64,000 nucleotides of DNA from a virus. The notes under the pieces were generated by a model. The model was not told the origin of the DNA and made no database searches. It saw nothing but the letters and a program-made list of their open reading frames with translations. Positions 3,694 through 63,012 of the stretch are shown here, one piece after another; the first letter of the stretch is position 1; the number at the start of each line of letters is the position of its first letter. A program made the position numbers and the translations under genes. The stretch lies in IMG/VR virus record IMGVR_UViG_3300010400_000001, positions 64,001-128,000 of that record. One strand, given 5' to 3'.

Positions 3694-4835
3694 TCGGCCT
3701 CCTCCGTCGCTGCTTTAAAGCACTTCGACCATGTCGTGTGCATGTCTCGCACTCGCGAGACGGGAATGTAGCGAGCAGAGTCGTCTCCTACGAACGCTCG
3801 AATGCCGAAGAATCCTGTTTTTTGTGTGTGCACGAGGATGTCGCTCAAGCGCGCCACGGCGTCGATGACGTACGCCTTTCCATCCGCGAGGAGCACAACC
3901 CGACCGGTGCATACGAATGACACCTTCTCCCCGTCGTCGAGAGTGAGAAGAATAAAGAGCTTGCCCACGTTGAACTTCTGAGGCTCCGGCGCGGCCGCCG
4001 GCTCTGGTTCCGATGCTGGCGCATCCGGCGCATCCGGCGACGATTGCTTTTTTGCAAACGGCCACATCAGAGCGGCCTCCCTGTAGTCGGTGGGCTACCC
4101 GCGCGGGCACGATGCACAGTGAACCAGAGCACCGCGCTGTCGGTGAGCCTCCTGCAGCGATTACCCGCGGTGGCGCCGCACGTCGGACAGGCGACGAAGT
4201 GCGGCGACGAGCCTTCCTGGTCCTCTGCCACCACGTCGGGCTCCAGATCGCTTTCCCGCCTGGCGCCTTCTTGCCTTCTGATTTTCTCGTGCGCGGCAAA
4301 AATGCTTGACGCAACGGCTAGCGCGCGATCCGGAGGGATCGCGTGGACGACGCGCGTGAGTCCCCACGCGAGAACGACACGAAGCCCGCCGTCGCCGAGG
4401 ACCTCGAAGCTCGATGTGTGCTCTACGTCTTTGGCTATCATCAGTACCGCTTCCCGTTGATGATCTGCACGTTCTCTTCGTCGATGCAGACGACGGTGAA
4501 ACCGAAACCCACGACGGGCACGCCGTGCTTGGCAACGCAGGCATTCCACCGGAGGTTCTTGTCCACCTCGATCTGTCGCTCAGTCGGCTCTTGAATCGCC
4601 TCCGCAGAGTGCACGATCCGAGGCGTCTCGCTATCGAACTCCGCGGGCAGCCACGCAGAGACGCTTGGCGCCGCAGAGGGCGACGGCTTCGCGCTGTCAC
4701 GCAAGCCATCTCGCATGCCCCACAGCGCGCCGGTCGTGCCCGCCGTGGCGCCTACGACGAGAAAAAAGCAGCTGACCACGGTGAATGCGGTCGTGAGCGA
4801 GACCGGGTACTCGAGAATTCGTTGCCTCAGGGTCT

Positions 4836-7308: not shown

Positions 7309-8340
7309 TCATGGCTCGAACCCGAGCCTACCGAGCTCCGCGGCGATGAGGTCGAGGTCCCCCCACGCTTCGTCGGTCACTTTTCCGTGTTTGTTCATCC
7401 AATGGCGCATCATCTGGCACAGGGCGCGGAGCTCGAAGTGCTCGGCGGCGAATTGGCGGCGACTGTATGCCGGACAGAGCCGAGCTTCCTGAATCGCGTC
7501 TTCGATATCGGCGCCGCAGTCGCCGCACATGTCGGCGCCGCCCTCTGCCGGGGTGACAGGACGGTGCGTCTCCACGATGGTGACGAGCGAGTCGTGAACT
7601 CTAGAAACGATCGACTCGAAGTTCTCTTCGTCGGGACACCCAGCTGCTTCGGTTAGGCGCGCCAAGGATGCGCGGAGCGTCGTGTTCTCGGCATGAAGCC
7701 GTTTCAGCGAGTCCCGATCTGCTTCCGCGAGCGCCCTCGGCAGGCGCTGGCGATTGAGCCTCACGATCTGCTCACGCAATTCGACGTTCTCGCGCCGAAG
7801 CTCCTCGACCTCTTTCGTAGGTTCCTGCATTTCCCTCACCTCCATGTGCCGGATTGCGTCCGCGAACACGCGGAGACCAACTTCCGTATCGATGTGGTAG
7901 ACGTCGACCACGATTCGCGCGGCCGCGGCCTTCTTATCGACTACGCATCGCCATGTGTTTTCGATCCATTTAAGCCTTTCGGGCACGCTCTCTTCTCTCC
8001 CATCAGGGTCTTCGTACAAGCGCACGCCGTCAGCGTCGTAGTATTTCGCGCCGTAGGACTCCGGGTGAGGACAGGCGCAATGGCCGCCGCTCCGAATGTC
8101 GGTCCTGCCCACCGGATCGGCGTACAGCTCTCGCGCGAGTTCGATCGGCACCGGCCCCTCGGCTACCCAGTAGGTCCACGCGCGATGGAAGTTAATGAGG
8201 CCGAGTTTGCCCTGGAGCGTTGCCGCTACCTCGCCAGCCAAGCGGGGGCCCTTGACGATCGAAATCCGCGCGCGCGTGAGCTCCTCTCGGATGTGCTCGT
8301 CACACTCGGCCGAGCCGGCTAGATTCACGAGTCCGCTCAC
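7309..8340 (-). CDS. Hypothetical protein with a coiled-coil middle segment
   Basis: ORF; EVEELRRENVELREQIVRL heptads; GTG start overlaps the upstream stop. Confidence 0.65.
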   Translation of the reverse strand: MSGLVNLAGSAECDEHIREELTRARISIVKGPRLAGEVAATLQGKLGLINFHRAWTYWVAEGPVPIELARELYADPVGRTDIRSGGHCACPHPESYGAKYYDADGVRLYEDPDGREESVPERLKWIENTWRCVVDKKAAAARIVVDVYHIDTEVGLRVFADAIRHMEVREMQEPTKEVEELRRENVELREQIVRLNRQRLPRALAEADRDSLKRLHAENTTLRASLARLTEAAGCPDEENFESIVSRVHDSLVTIVETHRPVTPAEGGADMCGDCGADIEDAIQEARLCPAYSRRQFAAEHFELRALCQMMRHWMNKHGKVTDEAWGDLDLIAAELGRLGFEP

Positions 8341-12466: not shown

Positions 12467-13890
12467 AGCAACCCGCTGAGCTTCGGCCGCGAGAGGGTAG
12501 GCCGCCGCCGCTAGATCTCGACGCGGAGGCTGCGGTGCTGAGCACCGTGCTGCTCGTCCCAGCAGCGTTCGATGAAGTCGCCGGCGTGCTCCAGGCTCAC
12601 ATGTTTTACTCCGAGGCGAACAAACGCATCTTCGAAGCCGCGACCTCGCTCAGGCAAGCCGAGAGCGCGATCGATTTCGTGACGGTCGCCGCGTGGCTCA
12701 ATCGCGAAGGGAAACTCGCCGTCGTCGGTGGGACGCCGTATCTCACGATGCTGACGGACGAGACGCCGTTCGTGAACAACGTTCTCCACCACGCCGAGAT
12801 CGTGCGCGACCGATGGCAACTCCGCCGGCTCATCGTCGAGTGTCAGAATTACGCCGCGCTCGCATACACGTCGAGTGAGCCGGCGATCACGATCGTTCAA
12901 GCCGCGGAGGGCGCGATCGCCGAGCTCTCGGTGCACGGCGCCGGCAAAGACCTCGAGCACGTCGGCACGATCATCGAATCCGAAGTCGAAGTGCTCGCAA
13001 CGATCCAAACCGACGGCGTTCGTAATCACGGGACCGGGATCCCAACCGGCTTCGAAAATCTCGACGGGCTCATGGGCGGTCTCCATCGCGGCGACCTGTA
13101 CATCGTCGCTGGTCGCCCCGGCATGGGCAAATCGTCGCTCGCAAGAAACGTTGCCGTGAACGTAGCGCGCCCCCGCCGTCACGCAGTTGCATTCTTCACG
13201 CTCGAGATGCCGAAGAGCCAAGTCGCGATCGGTTTCGCATGCAGCGAGCGCGACGTCCGAATGGCGAACGTCAGAAAAAATGCACTTGGTCCAGACGAGT
13301 GGGAAAACTTCAAACTCGGCGCGCGCGAACTCGCGTCTTACCCGATTTGGATCGACGACACGCCGGCGCTCTCGCTCTTCGACATTCGGGCTCGCGTGCG
13401 AAAGCTGCAGCGAGACATAGCGGCCAAGCGGACGCCGGTCGAGTGTGAAGAACTCGGTCTCGTTGTCGTGGACTACTTGCAACTCATGCGCGGCGTCAGG
13501 AGCTACAACGACAATCGAGAGAACGAAGTGTCGAGCCTGAGCCGCGGACTGAAAGAGCTCGCCAAAAACTTCAACGTGCCCGTGATGGCGCTCAGCCAAC
13601 TCAATCGCTCCGTCGAAACGAAGCCGAAGAAAGATCGCCGTCCACAGCTTTCAGATCTCCGCGAGTCGGGAGCGATCGAGCAAGACGCCGACGCCGTCGG
13701 GTTCGTTTACCGACCGGAGTACTACGACAAGGAAGCGCGCAAGGGCGACGCCGAGTTCATCATCGCGAAACAGCGTAACGGCCCGCCAGGAACCGTCACG
13801 ATGCACTTCAAGGGCGACTCGATGCGCTTTTACGAACGAGCGCACGAGACCCTCGAAGAGCTCGAGTCCGACTTCATCGAAGACCGATGA
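12451..13890 (+). CDS. dnaB: Replicative DNA helicase DnaB
   Basis: PPLDLDAEAAVL N-terminus, AGRPGMGKS, FTLEM, VVVDYLQLM, LSQLNR, SDLRESGAIEQDAD, IIAKQRNGP. Confidence 0.97.
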   Translation: MQPAVKQPAELRPREGRPPPLDLDAEAAVLSTVLLVPAAFDEVAGVLQAHMFYSEANKRIFEAATSLRQAESAIDFVTVAAWLNREGKLAVVGGTPYLTMLTDETPFVNNVLHHAEIVRDRWQLRRLIVECQNYAALAYTSSEPAITIVQAAEGAIAELSVHGAGKDLEHVGTIIESEVEVLATIQTDGVRNHGTGIPTGFENLDGLMGGLHRGDLYIVAGRPGMGKSSLARNVAVNVARPRRHAVAFFTLEMPKSQVAIGFACSERDVRMANVRKNALGPDEWENFKLGARELASYPIWIDDTPALSLFDIRARVRKLQRDIAAKRTPVECEELGLVVVDYLQLMRGVRSYNDNRENEVSSLSRGLKELAKNFNVPVMALSQLNRSVETKPKKDRRPQLSDLRESGAIEQDADAVGFVYRPEYYDKEARKGDAEFIIAKQRNGPPGTVTMHFKGDSMRFYERAHETLEELESDFIEDR

Positions 13891-53377: not shown

Positions 53378-54178
53378 TCATGGTCGACTCTGCATGGCGA
53401 AGGAAGAGCGCTGCTGGGAGAAAAGGGAGAGCAGGCGCATGGCGTTCTGCTTGAAGAGGAAGGCGACGTCGTCTTCGAAAATGGGGAGGGCCGGGGAAGA
53501 ATAAGTTGGTCGCTCGGTGGGCGGGGTTTGCAGCGCGACGCGCGCAGGAAAGCGTACCGTCCGCGGTAGTTTGTGCGGCGTGCCAGAAACCATCTTCTCT
53601 GGCTCGAGGACGATCGAGCCATCGAGCAGGCCGGTCACGGGCGCCGTTGCATCGGCCTCCCACTCGTGGACGCCGGCATTCGGCATGAGAGCGGGGCAGA
53701 GGTGTTCGGTCGAGAGCATCCGCATGTCCGCCCCCTTGATGACGGTATCCTGCCAGGGCGTTGGGGCCGTGAGGCCGAAGTGCTGGAGGACAGCGCGCTG
53801 CACGCGCGCGTTGATCGCATCGAGCGAGGACGTGACCGGTTTCGGCGTGAAGCGCGGATCTCCGGTCGCGCGTGACCGGGACTCTAGGAGTCGAAGAGCG
53901 GCCTTTAGCGGGCCAGAGACATCTCCGGTGTACGCCTCGTGGCCATCGTGAAACTGACCGAGGAGCTGCAGCAGGTAGTCCTCCGGATATTCGAGCTCGA
54001 TGAGCTTCCAGACCCAGAGGCAGTGCTCGCCGACGGAGTACGAGCGCGCCGTGTGCCCAGTGAAGCGACTGAGGTGCGCCAGGCTGTGCGACAGGTCAGT
54101 GAGATCGACGGCGTCCGCATCGGGTGCGAGCAGGTCGAAGCGTTTGCCGCTTAGGGTTTCTATCCAGGGAGCTATCAT
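53378..54178 (-). CDS. HD-domain phosphohydrolase (YfbR/YfdR-like deoxynucleotidase)
   Basis: IETLSGKRFD, DLSHSLAHLSRFTGH, YSVGEH, FHDGHEAYTGDV, IKGAD. Confidence 0.88.
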   Translation of the reverse strand: MIAPWIETLSGKRFDLLAPDADAVDLTDLSHSLAHLSRFTGHTARSYSVGEHCLWVWKLIELEYPEDYLLQLLGQFHDGHEAYTGDVSGPLKAALRLLESRSRATGDPRFTPKPVTSSLDAINARVQRAVLQHFGLTAPTPWQDTVIKGADMRMLSTEHLCPALMPNAGVHEWEADATAPVTGLLDGSIVLEPEKMVSGTPHKLPRTVRFPARVALQTPPTERPTYSSPALPIFEDDVAFLFKQNAMRLLSLFSQQRSSFAMQSRP

Positions 54179-57100
54179 GGGGACTCTTTCTCGGTGACGG
54201 TGAACTCGAGCTCTTCGATGACAGCGCCGGCGATCCCGTTCTTCACGAGGCTGCCGACGGCTCCGCCGAGCGCCCGCTCGAGACGCTCTCTCACGAGCGA
54301 GGCGTTTGCCCGTGTCGGCGAGCACTTCAGGCGGATTTGAAACGCAATCTCTCGCGGGCCGCTTTCGGTAAGCGACGGCTCTTCGGCGACGCGCTCGAGG
54401 AGGAGTTCCATTTCCTCTTCGGTCGGCATGTGCCGATTCGGCGAGCCGCTTGCCGACCGGAGAAGCGTGACCGCGACGTCCCCGTCCGGCCCTGGTTTCG
54501 TCACGACGAGCGTGCCGCTCGGGAGTTCCCAGAGCGAGTCGCCCTTGTGCGTCCGCTCTCTAAGCCGCGTTGCGTAGCGGATCTGAGTCTCGAGCTCTTT
54601 GTGAGCCGCGGCAGGGGACAGGCTTCGGTCGCAGCGCGAGATGTACTGCTCGACAGCGTGATGGGTGAGGATGATCATGGGCCGCGCTTCACTCTGCGCC
54701 CCTGCTCTTCTCCCAAGGAGGCCGCATGTGCGGAAGAGCCGGGAGCTCGAACTCGCGGTGGAGCTCTAGAGGCGGGAGCGCGTCAGTGCACGTGCGACCG
54801 TCGAGGCAGCGCTCGTACCAGGAAAAGATTCGGTCACAGCCTTGCTCTTCTCTCTGGAGTTCGTCCTGAGCAAGGATCTTTTGCGCGAGGACTATCTCGA
54901 GCTCCTCTTTTGAGTCGCGACTGTCGCTCTGTCCGACGTCGAGACCGAGCTCGAACGAAGAGAGGGCGACTAGCGCGCACGAGGTCACGACGACGAGCTC
55001 TGCGTGGAGCTTCATCGGGATTGCCGTTCGTCCATGAGCTTCAGCCAGTGGAGGGCCGCCTCGCCGGTCCTGTCCGGCATGTTCGGTGTGTCGTCGCAAA
55101 GCCAGCCCCGCAAGAGATTCAGCGTGTCCGAGAGCGAAACCGTCGCGCCGTAGCCGTCAGTGAAGCAGGGCCACTCGTGCGCTTCTGCCGGCATCCGCTC
55201 TAGCCAGTGCACGGCCGAGAAGGCCGTTTCGATCGGATACATCCTCTTACCGTGATTGGCCCACCCATCGAGAGATCCGATCGTTTCGGACAGGTCGTAC
55301 TCGCAGTCGTGGCTCATGGTCTCACTCGTAGTAGTCGCCATCGTCGTAGCAGTCTGGGCACGGCCCGCTCTCGAATTGTTCGTAGTCGTGGAAGGGACAC
55401 AAGAAGAGAGGCCCAATGGGCTTTGGTGCCGGCTCCGCGCGCCTAATGGACTCGGTGCAGATGCCGTCCTTGAACTCCATGCGAACTTCGTAGAAGACGT
55501 GCGGTTCGAGGTTTTCGAGCTTCATTGCTCGCCTCCGTCCCACTTGTCTCCAATCATCTCAGCGCAAACGCGAAACACGTTCCGCATTGCTGCGTGGGAG
55601 GCCTCGAAGTCTTCCATGTCGTCGACATGGAACAAAAGCCTGTCCACGTCGTCTTCAGTCGGCGCGAACCACTGCGTGCAGCCGTCCCATTTGCGGAAGC
55701 CAGTGATGCGCGGTTCGCACTCGAGCGGATCGTAGCTCCGGTGCATGAGATCCCGCGAGTCGCCAGTGTCCTTTTTGACGAAGATATTGCGACCGTCGTC
55801 CTCGTAGGCCTGCACTTCCCACATGCGGAAGCTGACGCTGAGGCCGTTCTCGTGGAGCTCCCAATCCGCGAACCAGGTCGGGTGCTTCTTGCCGGGCGGA
55901 TCGACGCATTCGGGGCCGCGCCTGCTCATGGGGAAGGAGTCTCCCTGTCTGTCATCTTAGGCGGCGCGCGAACGAACGTATGATCTTTCTTCGGCGGTCG
56001 GTCCCGGAACATCGCCTCCTTCGCGCGTTCGTATGTTGCGTCGTCCACCACCGGTCGGAGCGCTGCCAAAGCCTTCTCGAAGTCCGCTCGGCTGCTGTCG
56101 TGGTGGGCATCCAGGTGCTCGCCGCACACGGTGCAGTAAGGCGGCCCTGGGCACTCGGTCGGCGCCGCCGCTGGGCTGTACCGGCAGTGCATGCAGTGTT
56201 CGACCTTGGTGTCGAGGCCGACCCAGAAGTGCCCGTTCCGACGTTGCCTTGACTCGTCGGCTACGCCGCCGAAGATGTCTGTTACGTGGCCCATGGTTGC
56301 AGTCTCCTCCGCGCGCGGACGCGCGCCTGGTTCGTCGGGCTTGCTCATAAAAGGCGCTCCTGCTTCCGAGTCCGGTTCTCGAGATCTGCGATCATCTCCC
56401 TCATGTATGCGCGCTCGTTTTCTCGGTGCTCGCACTCGCGAACGAGCGCCTCGCGGAACTCGGCGTCGGTGTACGTGCCGTCGATGCGGCGGAGAACCTT
56501 CCGGACCGCGCCGCTCGACACGGTTCCGAGAGCGACCTCGAAGATGTGCACGACGCGAAGCCGCTCGGCGGCAATGCCGGCAGGGCGCCCCAGAAAGTAT
56601 CCGAAGCCAATGAGGCACACGTTCTCTAGGAGAAAGAAGACTGCGAGTACGAAAAAATAGCTCATCTGCCCCGAGGCTCTCTTTTGGTCTTTGCCGAGCG
56701 CTCATGCCTGGCGAACTCTTGGACGTCAGTCCAGAAGCGTTTAGTCACCGCATCAGTGCATGAGCCGATGAGCCCTTGCACTTCATGTTCGAATGCCTCC
56801 GGATCCGTAAGGAGGATCGTCCGGAGTTCTTCGACGGTGATCCTTGCCGAGCGTCGTTCCGCCACGACGTCCGTAATTCTACCTGGTTCGAGCTCCTGGT
56901 CCACCCCGAGTACTAGCCTCCGTATAGCTCCATTGCCGCCATGCGGAGCGCGCGTTGCCACGCGGACGGCGCGCACTTCCAGGGTAAGCCCTCGGGCGCG
57001 TAGCCCTCTCTCCAGAGAAAATCGTGGATACTGGCCGCGATGAACTCCGGATCTGGAAAGCGGGCCTCGAGCTTCGTTTCGAGCTTATCGATGTCGTTGT

Positions 57101-57217
57101 GGAGCCCCGCCGTGGTCTCCTCGGCCATCGCGAGCTCTCCTTCGAGGGCTTTGACGGCGGAGTCGATGTTGATCGTTTCCTCGAGCGCTTTCTGGAGGAG
57201 AGTTTTTAGGTCTTCAG

Positions 57218-57973
57218 TCATGGCGTGCACAGGATGGTTTCGGCGTCTTCGATCTCTGCCGCCTGAGAGACTTCCATCGGCGGCCCGAGATGTCCCGAGT
57301 GCCGTACGTGCTGGAGACAGAACCCTCGGTCTTTCAACATGGCCAGGAGTTCGATGTTTTTCTCGGCACGGTGGTGCTCGAGAAAGATGGTCGGTTTCCG
57401 GTCGAGGAGCTTCGGCGCGCCTCCCAGCACTTCTGGCTCGAAGCCCTCGACGTCGATCTTCAGGATGATCGGCGCTGCCAGCGGGTCGTTCTCTATCTCG
57501 TCGTCGAGCCGCACGACGAGGACCGACTGACGCTGGAGCGCTGGATCGTCAGTATGACTGACAAGGCTCGCGCCGCCGAGCGCCTGAGGATCGACGACAA
57601 GCGTTCGCATGTCCCTTTCGGACCCGCACGCCGCCGGCAAGAGAGTGCAGCGCTTTCTGTACCCGTTGACGGTCAGGCTGCGAGCGAGAAGCTCGCAGAG
57701 GTGCACGTTCGGCTCGAAGGCGTACACGCGGGCGCTCGCGAAACGACAGGCGAGTAGCGTGTACCAGCCGAAGTTTGCGCCGACATCGATGACGGTGGCT
57801 CCCGGCGCTTCGGAGAGCTTTGCCAGGAAGGCTTTGGTGACCCACTCCTCCCACATGCCGTCGAGCATGAGGTGCGGGGCGAGGCTCGTGTCGCGTGTGT
57901 CGACGTAGATCTTGTCTCCCCAGTGCGTGACAGCGAGCACCGTGTGGTCTCCGAGGTAGATGGCGGGTCTCAT
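57218..57973 (-). CDS. FkbM-family SAM-dependent methyltransferase
   Basis: VIDVGANFGWYT, VYAFEPN, LKIDVEGFEPEVLGG. Confidence 0.92.
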   Translation of the reverse strand: MRPAIYLGDHTVLAVTHWGDKIYVDTRDTSLAPHLMLDGMWEEWVTKAFLAKLSEAPGATVIDVGANFGWYTLLACRFASARVYAFEPNVHLCELLARSLTVNGYRKRCTLLPAACGSERDMRTLVVDPQALGGASLVSHTDDPALQRQSVLVVRLDDEIENDPLAAPIILKIDVEGFEPEVLGGAPKLLDRKPTIFLEHHRAEKNIELLAMLKDRGFCLQHVRHSGHLGPPMEVSQAAEIEDAETILCTP

Positions 57974-59586
57974 TTTGGGCGTCTCGCGCGACGATGGTTT
58001 CGCAGCGTGGTTTGCAATCCGGCGTTCTCCAGCGCGCGCGCATAGCCCTTGCCCAGCGTGGTGAGTCGATAGCCGAACCGATCGCGTGAGCTGTCCGTGC
58101 ATGCCGCGAGCCCGTGGGCTGCGAGAATTCTCAGGGTGGCGAGATTCTTGCGAGGAAAGTACCAGGTGCCGTCCTTGTTCCGATTCGGCTCGGCGAGCTC
58201 TAGGAGCATGCGGCACTGGGGTAGCGATAGCTTCACCCTGGTGGTCTGCACGAGTATTCCAGTAACCGGCTCGTCCGCTGTAGCGGATTGCGACCGCTTC
58301 ATGGCTGCACCGGAGACCGTGCTGGTTCGCTCACCCATTGCGCATGTCTCGGCGACGCCGAGTTCGGCGTCCACTGCAGCGAGTCGGATCCATCAAACGC
58401 CGGCACCCGAAGTGCCCAGCAGTCACGGCACTTCTCGAGTACGGTGCCAACGTCCACGAACCCGGTGCGAGCATGCGAGCATCCTTGAAACCGGCGCGAC
58501 GCGGCAAGGTATTCGCGATCCCACTTCCAGAACAGGAACTGAGCGTGCGCCTGACTGAGTAGGCTCTGCAGCAGCGACTGCTTCATGAGTCGGGCCCCGC
58601 TAGCCGGTAGCCGGCGTCCGTCGCGTGCAGAATGGCCTCTTCGCGCGTGGCAAAAGCGCCCACGCTTCCTTCGTCGCGGTACTCGTCGTCCCAGTAGTAC
58701 CAGCCCGGCCCGTCATGCGCGTTGTCAGCGTCATTGAAGTACTGTAGCTCGGCGAGCGGCTGCTCTTCGAGCATGCCGGTGTGGCCACAGTTGGCGCAGC
58801 CCTTGCCGGCGCAGCACGTGGAGGGGGCATCCGATATCGTCATGTCCCTGTCTGTCTCACGATGTTCCCGTCGTCGTCTCGCTTGTTGCCGAATGGATCG
58901 AAGCCCGTGCATGCCGCGCGAAGACCCCAGCCGACGCCCTTCATGCAGTAGCCGGGCTCGACGAGGCCGAGCTCGAGAGCGAGTGCGACGCCGGCGTCGG
59001 TCGGCTCGAAGAGCGCCACGTCGCCCTCGACTTCGCCGTCGATGTCGTAGCCCATGCACCGGAACTGAAGAAGCCCGCGCGCGACTAGCGAGTCGACGGT
59101 CCGGTGCTGCCCGGAGCCGCGCGGAAAGACGCACGGCGCGCCCCACGTGTCGGCGATGTGGCAGCAGCGAAAGCAGCCCGCGAGCATGCCTTTTTGTCGG
59201 TCAGAGAGAGAAAACTTCATGACGGTAGACTGTTGAGCTCTTTGATCATCCATCCGTTGCGCCGCATTGCCTCGGCTGCTTTTGCCCAGACGGCGCCGAT
59301 TTGAAGCGGAGCACGCGAGGACATTGAAGCCACTCGTCCTTGGATGACAAGAACGAAGAAGGCGCCGCCGTCCGTGTGAAGTATCTGAAACCAGGTCATC
59401 GGATTTTCGGCCTCCGTTCTTGCATCCGTGCACGGGCCAGGATGATCTCCTGCTCGGTGCGCTGCGTGATGGCCCCATGCCAGACGCCGAGCTTATTCGC
59501 CGCCTCGCGAAGCGAGCGCGAGCTGTCGAGTGCCCGAACGACCTCACGGGTGGTCACGATACGAGGGCGGCCGCGCGCGGGAGCGA

Positions 59587-60398: not shown

Positions 60399-61222
60399 CT
60401 GACAATGGACGCCTGTTACGAAGTCTATTCCGAAGTGTCATCCGATCAGCTCACGCCGCTGATAATCGCCGCCCATCACGAGGTGCTACTGGACCTGACA
60501 ATCGCTGCCCGTCACGAGAGGTACCGCGCCTGACAAGCGCCGCCCGTCACGAAGCGACTTTCGAGACCGCTGCGGTCGTCGACCGAACGACTTCGGGGTC
60601 GAGCGATTGACAAGCGTCGCCCGTCACGAAGGTGCTTTCTCCTCCGCAAAGCCGCGGAGGAAACAAATGGAGAATTGACATCTGACAAGCGCCGCCCGTC
60701 ACGAGGTGACTCGCGAGTGACGGAGCGTTCTCTGCTCGCAGCGTCAGAGCAACGACTGACAACTCGGCGTCCGTCACGAGGTGCCTCCCAAGAGCTCGGT
60801 GCGCGCGTTGCTTCCGTGGTCGCACCAGTCTGACAAGCGCCGCCCGTCACGAGGTGCCCCCTCGCCCGTTGAACGGGAAGCGTCGTACGATGACGCCCGG
60901 GTACTGATAAGCGGCGCCCGTCACGAGATTCCCCTCGAGCGGGTCGTGCTCGTACAAGTCACCTTCTGACAAGCGTCGCCCGTCACGAGGTGCCCCTCGC
61001 TCCGGCGAGCGACATGCGACTGCACCCAGGGGCGAACCTCTGACAAGCGCCGCCCGTCACGAGGTGCCCCCCGCTTTCGCCAGCGCGAACACACCGGTGG
61101 CGACGAGAGTCGTCTGACAAGCGCCGCCCGTCACGAGGTGCCCCCCGCTGCGCGATCAGCGCAGATCCCAGGAGACTGACTATGGCCTGACAAGCGCCGC
61201 CCGTCACGAGGTGCCCCCCGCT
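60399..61222 (-). CRISPR. CRISPR-like array of 13 repeats. Consensus 36 nt on the minus strand: AGCGGGGGGCACCTCGTGACGGGCGGCGCTTGTCAG. Spacers mostly 37-38 nt.
   Basis: Plus-strand repeat starts 60399, 60459, 60495, 60530, 60607, 60682, 60756, 60830, 60904, 60966, 61040, 61114, 61187; period mostly 73-77 nt; the three gene-proximal repeats are identical and the rest decay distally; 3' hairpin TGACGGGC/GCTTGTCA has G-U pairs only on the minus strand. Confidence 0.85.
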
Positions 61223-63012
61223 CGGTGCGCCAGGAGACCTGGAAACTCGCTGCGTTGGGGCTCGATTTGCGAGCGGTTCGGATCGTCGGCTCCGAACAAG
61301 GCCGTATCCAGGCCGAATTGCCTAGATCCTAGATGGGCGTCACCAGACTGCTCGAAAGGAACTTCGTGATAGGCGTCGATTGGTCGCACTGAGTGCGACG
61401 CTCCGGAAACCCGATTGCCGGGGCCTGGGGCGCTTGTTACGTCGCCATGCGGGGCCGTGACAGAGGATTTCTCCTCCGCCCGTGCCGTCCGCTTCCGCCG
61501 GCCGTTATCCCCTTTCGGGGGTTTCAAACCCGCGCTCCGCGGGCCTGCTGCTGGGTCGCCCGAAGGCGCCCGGTAGTTCAATAGATTGATCGCCGAATTG
61601 TCGTCGCGATCTTCCTGATACCCGCACGTCGGGCACATGAACGTCGGATAGCCGGCGTTCGTGTCGCGCACGGCATTACAGGCCGAGCATCGGTTCGTCG
61701 TCGGCTCCTCTATCGGAACGAGCTCGAGGCGACCGCCGGCCCACGCCTGCTTGTACTCGAGCCGTCGCCTGAGATCTCCCATGCGAGCGGCGTGAACATT
61801 TTTGGCAAGTCGGTTTCGAGTGCGCGCGGCGTCTCCGCGCTTTCCGGCGCGCGAGAGCATCTTCGCAATGCCGGGTCCTCGCATCCGGACGGTCTCGGCG
61901 CCCATGTCGGCGATCTGACGAGCGGCCTTGCCGCAGACGTCGTCGCGAAGGGATTTGATGCGCGCGTGGTAATGAGCGACTCGCATGGCCGCTTCTTTCC
62001 AGCCCTGGCTTTGGTCGCGGGTTTTCACCCCGTCCTTCCATCGGCGAGCCATCCGCCGTTCCCACCGCTTGCGAAGCATCTCGAACTTGTCGATGCGCCG
62101 GTCGTCCCGAAGTGGCGAGTGCCACACGTGCCCCGCGCGCTCGCCGGTGGAAGCAACGGCAAGAACACGGACTCCGACTTCTACGCCGAGCTCCCTGCCG
62201 GGGACTCGCTTGGTCTGGTGCATCGCGAGAGCACGCCCGGGACCGCGCTTTTGCGGAAAGGGGCGAGGGACTTCGCATCGAAGTGCGACGTACCAGCGGC
62301 CGTCCTTCTCGGATACGCCGAGCCCGCATGCTTTGCCACCGCCGATGAAGCGATGAGAGTTTTCCTCGGTGACCGGAAGGTAGCCGCGTTCCTTCATTCT
62401 CACCCAGCCGACGCCAGGGATTTTGACTGCGCGCTCCGTCACTCGAATCGGATCGGGTTGGTCACTGTGATAGCTCGCGCGCTGCCGCCCGCGAAACCGC
62501 GGCGGTCCGGCGCTCGCGTAGCGGCCGGCCTTGAGGTGCTCGAAGAAGTGCTTCCAGCCGTCCGCGACGTCGAGCACGGCTTCGCGGATGGCGAATGCAG
62601 AGAGCTCAGAGAGCCAGCCAAAGCGCTCGGGTTGCTCTTCCTTGGCGGAGACGAGCTGCGAGTACCAGTCGACTCGACCAGCGCGGAAGTCAGGAAGCTG
62701 TACGCCCGAGGCAGGGCGATAGCGGTAGCGCGAGCCCGCCTCTGATTTCGGCGTACGCACCTTCACGGGCTCGCCGCGAATGAGAGCTGCAAGGCAGTAG
62801 CCGAAGAGAGCCGCAGCCTCCCCGCCTTTGGCGTCGATGCCCGCGAGCGCCCGGCAGCCGAGCGCGACCCCGCGGGTCCCGTCGAGCTCTTTCCATTTTT
62901 CCAAGGCCCAGTTGTGGGCCACTCGCGCGCCGGCGACATGTCGCGCGAGCACGACCCGCTGCTCGTCAGTCGGATCGAGCTCGGTCTTGTAGGCGCGGAG
63001 AATGGTGGTCAT
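61204..63012 (-). CDS. tnpB: TnpB/Cas12-like RNA-guided protein, predicted nuclease-dead
   Basis: N-terminal RAYKTELDPTDEQ...GARVAHNWAL; PPRFR; VKIPGVGWV; DGRWYV; RuvC-I LGVEVGV (D to E); RuvC-II TVRMRGP (E lost); LEYK; Zn ribbon CSAC...CPTC; RuvC-III DRDDNSAINL; about 120 aa low-complexity tail. Confidence 0.88.
   Translation of the reverse strand: MTTILRAYKTELDPTDEQRVVLARHVAGARVAHNWALEKWKELDGTRGVALGCRALAGIDAKGGEAAALFGYCLAALIRGEPVKVRTPKSEAGSRYRYRPASGVQLPDFRAGRVDWYSQLVSAKEEQPERFGWLSELSAFAIREAVLDVADGWKHFFEHLKAGRYASAGPPRFRGRQRASYHSDQPDPIRVTERAVKIPGVGWVRMKERGYLPVTEENSHRFIGGGKACGLGVSEKDGRWYVALRCEVPRPFPQKRGPGRALAMHQTKRVPGRELGVEVGVRVLAVASTGERAGHVWHSPLRDDRRIDKFEMLRKRWERRMARRWKDGVKTRDQSQGWKEAAMRVAHYHARIKSLRDDVCGKAARQIADMGAETVRMRGPGIAKMLSRAGKRGDAARTRNRLAKNVHAARMGDLRRRLEYKQAWAGGRLELVPIEEPTTNRCSACNAVRDTNAGYPTFMCPTCGYQEDRDDNSAINLLNYRAPSGDPAAGPRSAGLKPPKGDNGRRKRTARAEEKSSVTAPHGDVTSAPGPGNRVSGASHSVRPIDAYHEVPFEQSGDAHLGSRQFGLDTALFGADDPNRSQIEPQRSEFPGLLAHRAGGTS
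61357..61386 (-). ncRNA. Anti-repeat (tracrRNA/omegaRNA-like segment) inside the 3' end of the TnpB-like gene
   Basis: Plus strand AGGAACTTCGTGATAGGCGTCGATTGGTCG is an inverted, diverged copy of the repeat, so the minus-strand transcript can pair with the repeat RNA. Confidence 0.6.

Follow-up and report, generated by a model that had tools for sequence, protein, structure and literature searches.

The locus described here lies on the minus strand of a 64,000-nt stretch of DNA (hereafter the window), which represents bases 64,001–128,000 of the IMG/VR record IMGVR_UViG_3300010400_000001, a complete virus record of 136,226 bp with direct terminal repeats. The phage is from soil, and its genes in the window also code for a helicase of the DnaB type and for a tail fibre resembling collagen. 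The locus comprises a gene for a TnpB-like protein of 602 amino acids (aa), termed the effector, an RNA scaffold encoded by the last part of the same gene, and a CRISPR array, the first repeat of which contains the stop codon of the gene. The data make it probable that this is a minimal phage-borne type V-like system, which derives from TnpB, depends on a trans-activating CRISPR RNA (tracrRNA) and binds DNA, probably without cleavage. The locus carries the following features:

61204..63012, minus strand: effector gene, TnpB-like, 602 aa (open reading frame (ORF), Pfam and NCBIfam matches, AlphaFold2 (AF2) model)

62173..62187, minus strand: RuvC-I motif GVEVG, residues 276–280, with E278 at the catalytic Asp position (alignments)

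61873..61893, minus strand: RuvC-II strand TVRMRGP, residues 374–380, with R378 at the catalytic Glu position (alignments, family rows)

61624..61689, minus strand: zinc ribbon CxxC...CxxC, formed by C442, C445, C460 and C463 (invariant columns, Pfam TNB domain)

61603..61611, minus strand: RuvC-III residues D468-R469-D470 (EDRDD), retained (alignments)

61207..61563, minus strand: disordered C-terminal tail, residues 484–602, the DNA of which encodes the RNA scaffold (predicted local distance difference test (pLDDT) 26–36, RNA-level conservation)

61352..61385, minus strand: anti-repeat (tracr-like), complementary and colinear to the repeat over its full length and placed 132 nt upstream of repeat 1 (duplex search, alignment, covariation)

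61276..61297, minus strand: scaffold hairpin GTTCGG-AGCCGACGA-TCCGAAC (flanks in six loci, alignment)

61266..61273, minus strand: invariant CTCGCAAA, the GCTCG of which pairs with an invariant CGAGC after the anti-repeat (alignment, RNAalifold)

60399..61220, minus strand: CRISPR array with 13 repeats of ~34 nt ending in GTCAG beside the spacer and spacers of ~38–39 nt, the distal repeats being degenerate (repeat search)

60861..60903, minus strand: spacer 5, of which 60869–60903 matches the phage's own genome at 13360–13394 in 34 of 35 positions (genome search)

The effector has the architecture of TnpB, with an HTH/WED-REC part, a split RuvC domain and a zinc-ribbon TNB domain. It matches the Pfam families Cas12f1-like_TNB (E = 2.1e-14, 53.8 bits, cut-off 26.3) and HTH_OrfB_IS605 (4e-10) and the NCBIfam family guided_TnpB (156.3 bits, cut-off 100), while the match to Pfam OrfB_IS605 is weak (22.7 bits, under the cut-off of 30.5). 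In the AF2 model residues 1–483 are folded, with a mean pLDDT of 72, and the tail (residues 484–602) is disordered, with pLDDT of 26–36. The phage genome contains a single copy of the effector gene, and neither Cas1, Cas2, Cas4, Y1 TnpA nor a serine recombinase was found in its whole 136,226 bp, in searches whose controls were positive in 6–12 of 14 genomes. The setting typical of TnpB, a transposon with TnpA or the ends of an insertion sequence (IS) and often several copies, is not that of the effector, which has neither TnpA nor a second copy. The first-pass annotation, made from the sequence of the window, had proposed a virus-encoded and TnpB-derived protein of 602 aa with a TnpB layout and no cas1, cas2, cas4 or tnpA in the window; these proposals hold, the absence of the four genes now extending to the whole genome and the TnpBs of ISDra2 and ISFba1 being the best solved relatives of the protein.

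The 13 repeats occupy the minus strand between 61217 and 60399, with a period of 73–74 nt. Six of them differ from a 31-nt core at 0–2 positions and seven at 4–11 positions. The TGA stop codon of the effector (61204–61206) lies inside repeat 1, as already annotated. The gene ends in the same manner in the window and in two related loci, L003 and L083, where the ORF crosses the scaffold and its stop codon is the TGA within the GTGACGG of the repeat. Repeats 10, 11 and 12 (region 60459–60560) are separated by only 4–5 nt and have no spacers between them; on their 3' side follow a 29-nt spacer, the very degenerate repeat 13 and 15 nt before the ATG of the next gene (60383).

Sequence searches recovered about 30 close homologues of 490–717 aa, plus further representatives, and the comparison of their loci excluded homologues known only from Logan/ENA contigs (e.g. 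P0001, P0008 and P0011). An array is present downstream of the gene in nine of the 11 loci with at least 300 nt after the gene, namely in the window, L003, L083, L085, L086, L087, L089, L093 and L095; five further loci run off contig ends and stand outside this count. If the near-identical L083 and L085 are counted once, an array occurs in eight lineages and is missing from two. All repeats in the family end in GTCAG or GTCAC next to the spacer. Since the gene-plus-array layout recurs in eight loci other than the window, the arrangement is not due to chance, and the array of the earlier annotation is real and conserved with the gene. A TnpB-like RuvC effector stably linked to a downstream array, which is the mark of type V systems, is therefore present in nine of 11 loci. 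The proteins of the two array-less loci, L090 (6001–7419) and L096 (14–815), end right after the RuvC-III region; these loci are short of both the tail and the array, so that the two elements appear or vanish together. On L087 the effector gene has arrays on both sides: besides the short downstream one (4041–4200), another with repeats of the same family (1–370) lies ~1.9 kb upstream.

The C-terminal tail is disordered as protein, yet its DNA is conserved at the nucleotide level. RSQ, the only conserved motif of the tail, is the translation of CTCGCAAA and is kept because CTCGCAAA is invariant at the RNA level. In the helix formed by CGAGC and GCTCG (helix 2), four of the five pairs are invariant in all eight aligned sequences. 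The AGCCGACGA loop of the scaffold hairpin is conserved, and its stems differ between loci yet stay complementary, as judged by eye and not counted. In L003, L086, L093 and L095 a sense-strand complement of the full-length repeat is located 123–171 nt upstream of the first repeat, and its duplex with the repeat beats 198–200 of 200 shuffled repeats. When eight loci were aligned, RNAalifold paired the anti-repeat with the repeat, and 17 of the 19 pairs of this helix, counted on a structure derived from the same alignment, have changed on both sides. The cells of the helix are paired in 81.8% of cases, against 29.7–41.7% when the partner columns are slid by 1–3, and none of 500 shuffles reaches the observed score. 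An anti-repeat to the repeat, as in tracrRNA-dependent type V systems, is thus found near the effector. The locus is laid out like a TnpB omegaRNA with its last ~35 nt multiplied into an array, and it presents a very plain case of omegaRNA splitting, with an ORF that covers the entire scaffold and ends within repeat 1. Searches of the window for Rfam families and tRNAs gave no match, and a scan for promoters and terminators gave nothing above shuffles.

The positions of the catalytic triad were assigned by alignment to ISDra2 TnpB and canonical TnpBs. In place of the canonical D/E/D the effector has E278/R378/D468, which confirms the motifs read from the sequence at first (GVEVG at RuvC-I, VRMRG at RuvC-II and an intact RuvC-III), and residues 372–378 are predicted to form a beta strand in the AF2 model. 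The wider alignment comprised 116 proteins of at least 330 aa, consisting of 43 family rows including that of the window, protein P0112 and 72 others. The RuvC-I position of the family rows is occupied by Glu in 35, Asp in seven and Ser in one. At the RuvC-II position Arg is found in all 43 family rows and in none of the 72 other TnpBs, as well as in 13 of 13 loci covering the motif. The triad of one member, P0052, reads S/R/E. P0112, a short TnpB-like protein of 448 aa outside the clade, has the triad E/R/D and joins the tree by a long branch; it may represent a second origin of the same E/R substitution pair. Seven other TnpB relatives of ~380–440 aa (P0060, P0067, P0070, P0072, P0075, P0083 and P0086) show A-x-H-x-G at RuvC-I and E/Q-x-W at RuvC-II, and probably belong to one of the published clades with a rearranged site.

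On a maximum-likelihood tree (quick search, LG+G4) of the 44 rows with Arg and the first 45 of the 72 others, to which sequences of reference structures did not contribute, the 43 family protein clusters (490–717 aa) form one clade with a Shimodaira–Hasegawa-like approximate likelihood ratio test (SH-aLRT) value of 100. The branches nearest to the clade (P0057, P0059 and P0069) all have D/E/D, and among solved structures they are most closely related to the TnpBs of ISDra2 and ISFba1. Compared with solved structures, the family profile matches TnpB best (E = 6e-43 to 1.8e-46), followed by RdCas12n (4.7e-35), LaTranC (2e-14) and Cas12f (~1e-9), while Cas12m is matched at the zinc ribbon only (2.4e-6 and 1e-3). 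The top Foldseek hits of the model are the TnpBs of ISFba1 and ISDra2 (E = 5e-21, TMt 0.66), and Cas12m scores TM 0.36–0.38. The family is thus no closer to Cas12f, Cas12m, Cas12n or TranC than to TnpB. These comparisons place the clade among ordinary TnpBs and outside Cas12f, Cas12m, Cas12n and TranC, as far as solved-structure references allow, which is consistent with the independent TnpB-to-CRISPR transition suggested in the first-pass annotation; the clade falls in no Cas12 subtype that had a reference in the comparison.

The family has 38 invariant columns across 28 members at 38–98% identity. Where the contigs could be judged they look viral: L003 is on a 140-kb virus record (phage G001), L093 is accompanied by terminase-like and primase-like genes and L089 by an exonuclease VIII-like gene. 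One homologue, P0031, is located on a 912-kb contig. A scan of cellular genome contigs revealed no close member, the best identity being 30%, but it used generic patterns and does not imply absence from cellular genomes. Of ten flanking ORFs tested, seven had no PHROG hit, and no neighbouring gene is conserved across the lineages of the family.

Close relatives reveal how the arrays change. In L083 and L085, whose flanks are 95–99% identical, no gene-proximal spacer is shared; the distal spacers and the degenerate repeats are common to both. In a contig of sequencing run X2 the effector is ~97% identical to that of the window and the region of spacers 4–9 is kept with small changes, and a single different spacer of 39 nt replaces spacers 1–3. 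Because in both pairs the proximal spacers differ and the distal ones are kept, the arrays bear the mark of a polarised renewal next to the gene, which is the behaviour of an adaptive array and not of a fixed regulon. In L085 the same spacer occurs twice in one array, as spacers 1 and 5 (7893–7919 and 8183–8209).

Searched against the genome of the phage itself, nine of the ten window spacers gave nothing significant. The exception is spacer 5, whose target (L002 4361–4395) is located outside the window, inside an ORF of 198 aa, the spacer being in the coding-strand sense. This ORF has a CX5R-like motif and sub-threshold Pfam phosphatase hits (E = 0.001–0.008), so that it can be called phosphatase-like only provisionally; it is divergent from a gene for a 1249-aa tyrosine recombinase and overlaps the start of that gene. 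The single mismatch of spacer 5 is at window position 60888, where both X2 contigs covering the position, one the array contig and the other identified by its loose ends as the phosphatase-like gene, read T; spacer and target therefore agree there. In the related phage G001 spacer 5 finds the homologous site at 29 of 33 positions (88% over 33 nt), and no other window spacer matches G001. That phage has self-matching spacers of its own: spacer 11 has a match of 95% over 42 nt, in sense orientation, to a gene of the collagen-like kind, with two weaker copies nearby, and spacer 6 has a match of 97% over 32 nt, antisense to a likely gene and partly mismatched in the first four bases. Both complete phage genomes that could be searched thus contain self-matching spacers. 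The whole array gave no match to GenBank phages, and a single weak 57-nt whole-array match to a plasmid was dismissed. Spacer 8 (60638–60681) contains a perfect 11-bp hairpin (z = -3.3 against shuffles) resembling a captured terminator. Hairpins are not a general property of the spacers, the mean z being -0.37 for the ten window spacers and -0.23 for 46 others; only spacer 8 stands out.

In the mechanism proposed here, the system has three parts: an effector with a folded core of ~480 aa, an omegaRNA-like scaffold encoded within the last ~360 nt of the ORF, and the array, whose repeat corresponds to the 3' end of the scaffold. The covariation shows that the anti-repeat pairs with each repeat over ~33 bp, and lends indirect support to guide RNAs from the array being bound by the effector. 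This duplex would probably be cut by a host enzyme of the RNase III type, and the repeat-spacer guide together with the scaffold would then load the effector. Since all members have Arg in place of the RuvC-II Glu, the most likely action of the complex is to bind complementary DNA and so block transcription or replication, instead of cutting. The comparison of close relatives shows spacer renewal at the gene-proximal end, by machinery that the phage does not encode, presumably adaptation proteins of the host or recombination. Most spacers are presumably directed against competing mobile elements, and at least one old spacer, which matches the phage's own phosphatase-like gene and is kept across strains, may be either tolerated or used to damp that gene. 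As a whole, the system resembles a fixed regulator less than it does an array for immunity or competition whose spacers turn over.

A number of observations weigh against a tracr-dependent system that binds without cutting. The two homologues L090 and L096 have Arg at RuvC-II and neither the tail nor the array. The energy of the anti-repeat duplex is no better than that of shuffles in the window, L083 and L085, where 174, 91 and 128 of 200 shuffles, respectively, are as good, although the colinear anti-repeat of the window occupies the homologous place; counting pairs on a structure derived from the alignment itself favours the helix. The self-matches lie inside coding regions and not in promoters, one of them is in antisense orientation and mismatched on the side of the repeat, and all three carry 1–4 mismatches in the genomes searched. 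No protospacer adjacent motif (PAM) could be derived from the three protospacer flanks, and the self-targets might simply lack one; a self-matching guide kept across strains fits a non-cutting effector, and an absent PAM explains it equally well. The loss of nuclease activity is the weakest step, plausible but unproven on the basis of sequence. Residues 278, 468 and 470 stay acidic in 98–100% of the family, which is odd for a dead site, and D303 and E340 are family-specific acidic residues and candidate replacements for the lost Glu. In some TnpB clades the RuvC-II Glu is replaced, and a Glu from another loop is thought to compensate for it (PMC10691335, Altae-Tran et al. 2023); some of these rearranged clades are virus-specific (PMC10691335). 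The original description of the protein as nuclease-dead is made plausible by the invariant R378 and is called into question by the conserved acidic partners and by published rearranged clades that keep activity through a substitute Glu.

These points are in favour of an effector that is still a nuclease, in which E340 or D303 replaces the Glu, or Arg378 joins a changed chemistry, and which serves a cutting type V system directed against competitors. The active nuclease Cas12r, phage-borne and with a similar locus layout, lends the idea a precedent, and the mismatches in all self-matches would suit it. Nevertheless, it is unlikely: a positively charged Arg is invariant at the position of the metal-binding Glu, whereas the compensated clade named in the text of PMC10691335 has Gly there, the triad of P0052 is S/R/E, and two strains retain a self-matching spacer whose repeat-proximal half is intact. 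The first-pass annotation had instead seen a domesticated multiplexed regulator, in which the array would serve as a set of hard-wired guides to phage or host genes in the manner of TldR, which sets a precedent in prophages. Self-matching spacers in two of two complete genomes and the retention of spacer 5 in a diverged strain agree with this. However, the gene-proximal spacers differ both between L083 and L085, phages 95–99% identical in their flanks, and between the window and its X2 relative, all but one of the ten window spacers lack a significant self-match, the targets are intragenic, and no neighbouring gene is conserved across lineages. This proposal is weakened accordingly to the point of being quite improbable, the kept self-matching spacer being the only element that looks regulatory.

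Membership in subtype V-M (Cas12m), to which a 2026 preprint assigned a 610-aa phage protein beside an array, has very little to recommend it. Size, mobile-element setting, lack of adaptation genes and probable binding without cutting are similar, as far as the accessible part of that preprint goes, but Cas12m matches the family at the zinc ribbon only, against 6e-43 to 1.8e-46 for TnpB, and its Foldseek TM of 0.36–0.38 compares with 0.66 for TnpB. The protein of the preprint, compared by its description only, is moreover said in the available portion to keep D305/E463/D555 and to have no tracrRNA. Least credible of all is the idea that a TnpB in decay happens to lie next to a tandem repeat. 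The degenerate distal repeats, the lack of spacers between repeats 10–12 and the two array-less relatives might be so explained, but this explanation is already contradicted by conservation, namely by the invariant columns of members as distant as 38% identity, a frame that is open through ~120 tail codons in the aligned members, RNA helices that co-vary, and arrays in nine of 11 loci.

The DNA-binding system favoured here would be a phage-kept TnpB derivative whose spacers turn over although the phage has no adaptation genes and in which a guide to the own genome is tolerated. If it binds without cutting, it represents a natural binder similar to nuclease-dead Cas proteins (dCas), with a core of ~480 aa, a multi-guide array and a defined tracr scaffold, and as such may be of practical interest. 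A bolder version, which we consider speculative and unlikely to be correct in full, is that of a virus-specific lineage in which the RuvC pocket was rebuilt around the invariant Arg, the acidic partners being kept for a new role, and in which silencing is adaptive without adaptation genes of its own, the self-guide on the phosphatase-like gene acting as a timer or dosage control. If true, this would be natural CRISPR interference exerted by a virus on itself and on its rivals. Two questions become testable at this locus, the updating of an array in trans and viral CRISPR-type silencing of self.

The 315-aa upstream gene and the 104-aa and 179-aa downstream genes had no family hits. Several genes are common to window positions 53381–58330 and phage G001 (L003 2183–5684), with 39–67% identity. 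In one phage they lie downstream of the module of effector and array, in the other upstream of it, which means that either the module or its surroundings have moved. An ORF at 57218–58216 on the minus strand, conserved in G001, contains the motif VIDVGANFGWYT, which we take to be typical of FkbM-type methyltransferases.

Type V variants with an inactivated RuvC, and TnpB-to-CRISPR transitions that happened repeatedly, have been published before. Inactivation of RuvC is described as recurrent in type V; it is shown for V-C as well as V-M, and for V-O and V-P it is predicted (PMC12669027). The independent TnpB-to-CRISPR events reported in PMC10691335 number about 50, and its V-U groups, of which some have altered catalytic sites, number 40. 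Array-linked effectors with non-canonical catalytic residues, for which absence of cutting is predicted or shown, also include V-U24, V-U43, V-U44, Cas12k and Cas12c along with V-O and V-P. For V-U24 the description gives a RuvC-I that is non-canonical and an HTH protein associated with it, whereas the window family has no conserved neighbour. In the literature covered, which did not extend to the V-U group tables in supplements, there is no described clade with Arg at RuvC-II, a tracr in the ORF tail and self-matching spacers; the clade, set apart from them by descriptions only, may be identical to a published V-U, V-O or V-P group.

The Cas12r system of the Thermus Lalka phages consists, in the part of the preprint available, of a TnpB-like protein with a short array directly after it and no adaptation genes, and represents an independent TnpB branch with an active RuvC nuclease, whose activity is killed by D238A (bioRxiv 10.64898/2026.04.20.719267). 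Its repeats are 29 bp long, it needs no tracrRNA and it is specific to thermophiles (same preprint). Both systems share a phage-borne TnpB-like protein with an array; Cas12r cuts and has no need of a tracrRNA, whereas the window system probably does not cut and has an anti-repeat. The 610-aa myxophage protein, designated 'Cas12m' (MvCas12m), is also adjacent to an array and has an intact triad and no tracrRNA in what is accessible of its preprint. The effector resembles Cas12m in being a small type V effector on mobile elements without adaptation genes, and has no sequence or fold relationship with it beyond the common TnpB core. Cas12m keeps the RuvC triad and needs no tracrRNA, whereas the present locus has lost the Glu and possesses an anti-repeat. 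Cas12m silences by binding without cutting, as stated in the part of PMC11656645 available.

TldR proteins are TnpB derivatives with a deteriorated RuvC, some of them encoded by phages, that repress by RNA-guided binding; they use one guide and no array, accompany a partner gene (fliC, oppF) and target promoters. The effector is likewise a TnpB derivative in which, judging from its residues, the catalytic Glu is lost. Its locus has a turning-over array of 13 repeats instead of a single guide, no conserved neighbour in place of a partner gene, and intragenic self-matches. With the IS605/IS607 TnpBs (ISDra2, PDB 8h1j/8exa; ISFba1, PDB 8iaz) the effector has in common the domain order, the fold and the zinc ribbon, as well as a guide scaffold that overlaps the 3' end of the gene. 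It differs from them in being ~200 aa longer, owing to a REC insertion and the tail, in the triad E/R/D, in the lack of TnpA, in its single genome copy and in an array of 13 repeats where they have a single guide.

LaTranC (2e-14) and RdCas12n (4.7e-35) are more distant from the family than TnpB is, and its sister branches are TnpB-like proteins with D/E/D. TranC and Cas12n systems cut DNA. A split omegaRNA pattern was reportedly found in TranC by Jin et al. in 2025. In RNA layout the locus is like TranC and Cas12n, with a tracr-like scaffold at the place of the omegaRNA, a repeat that equals the 3' end of the scaffold, and an array downstream of the gene.

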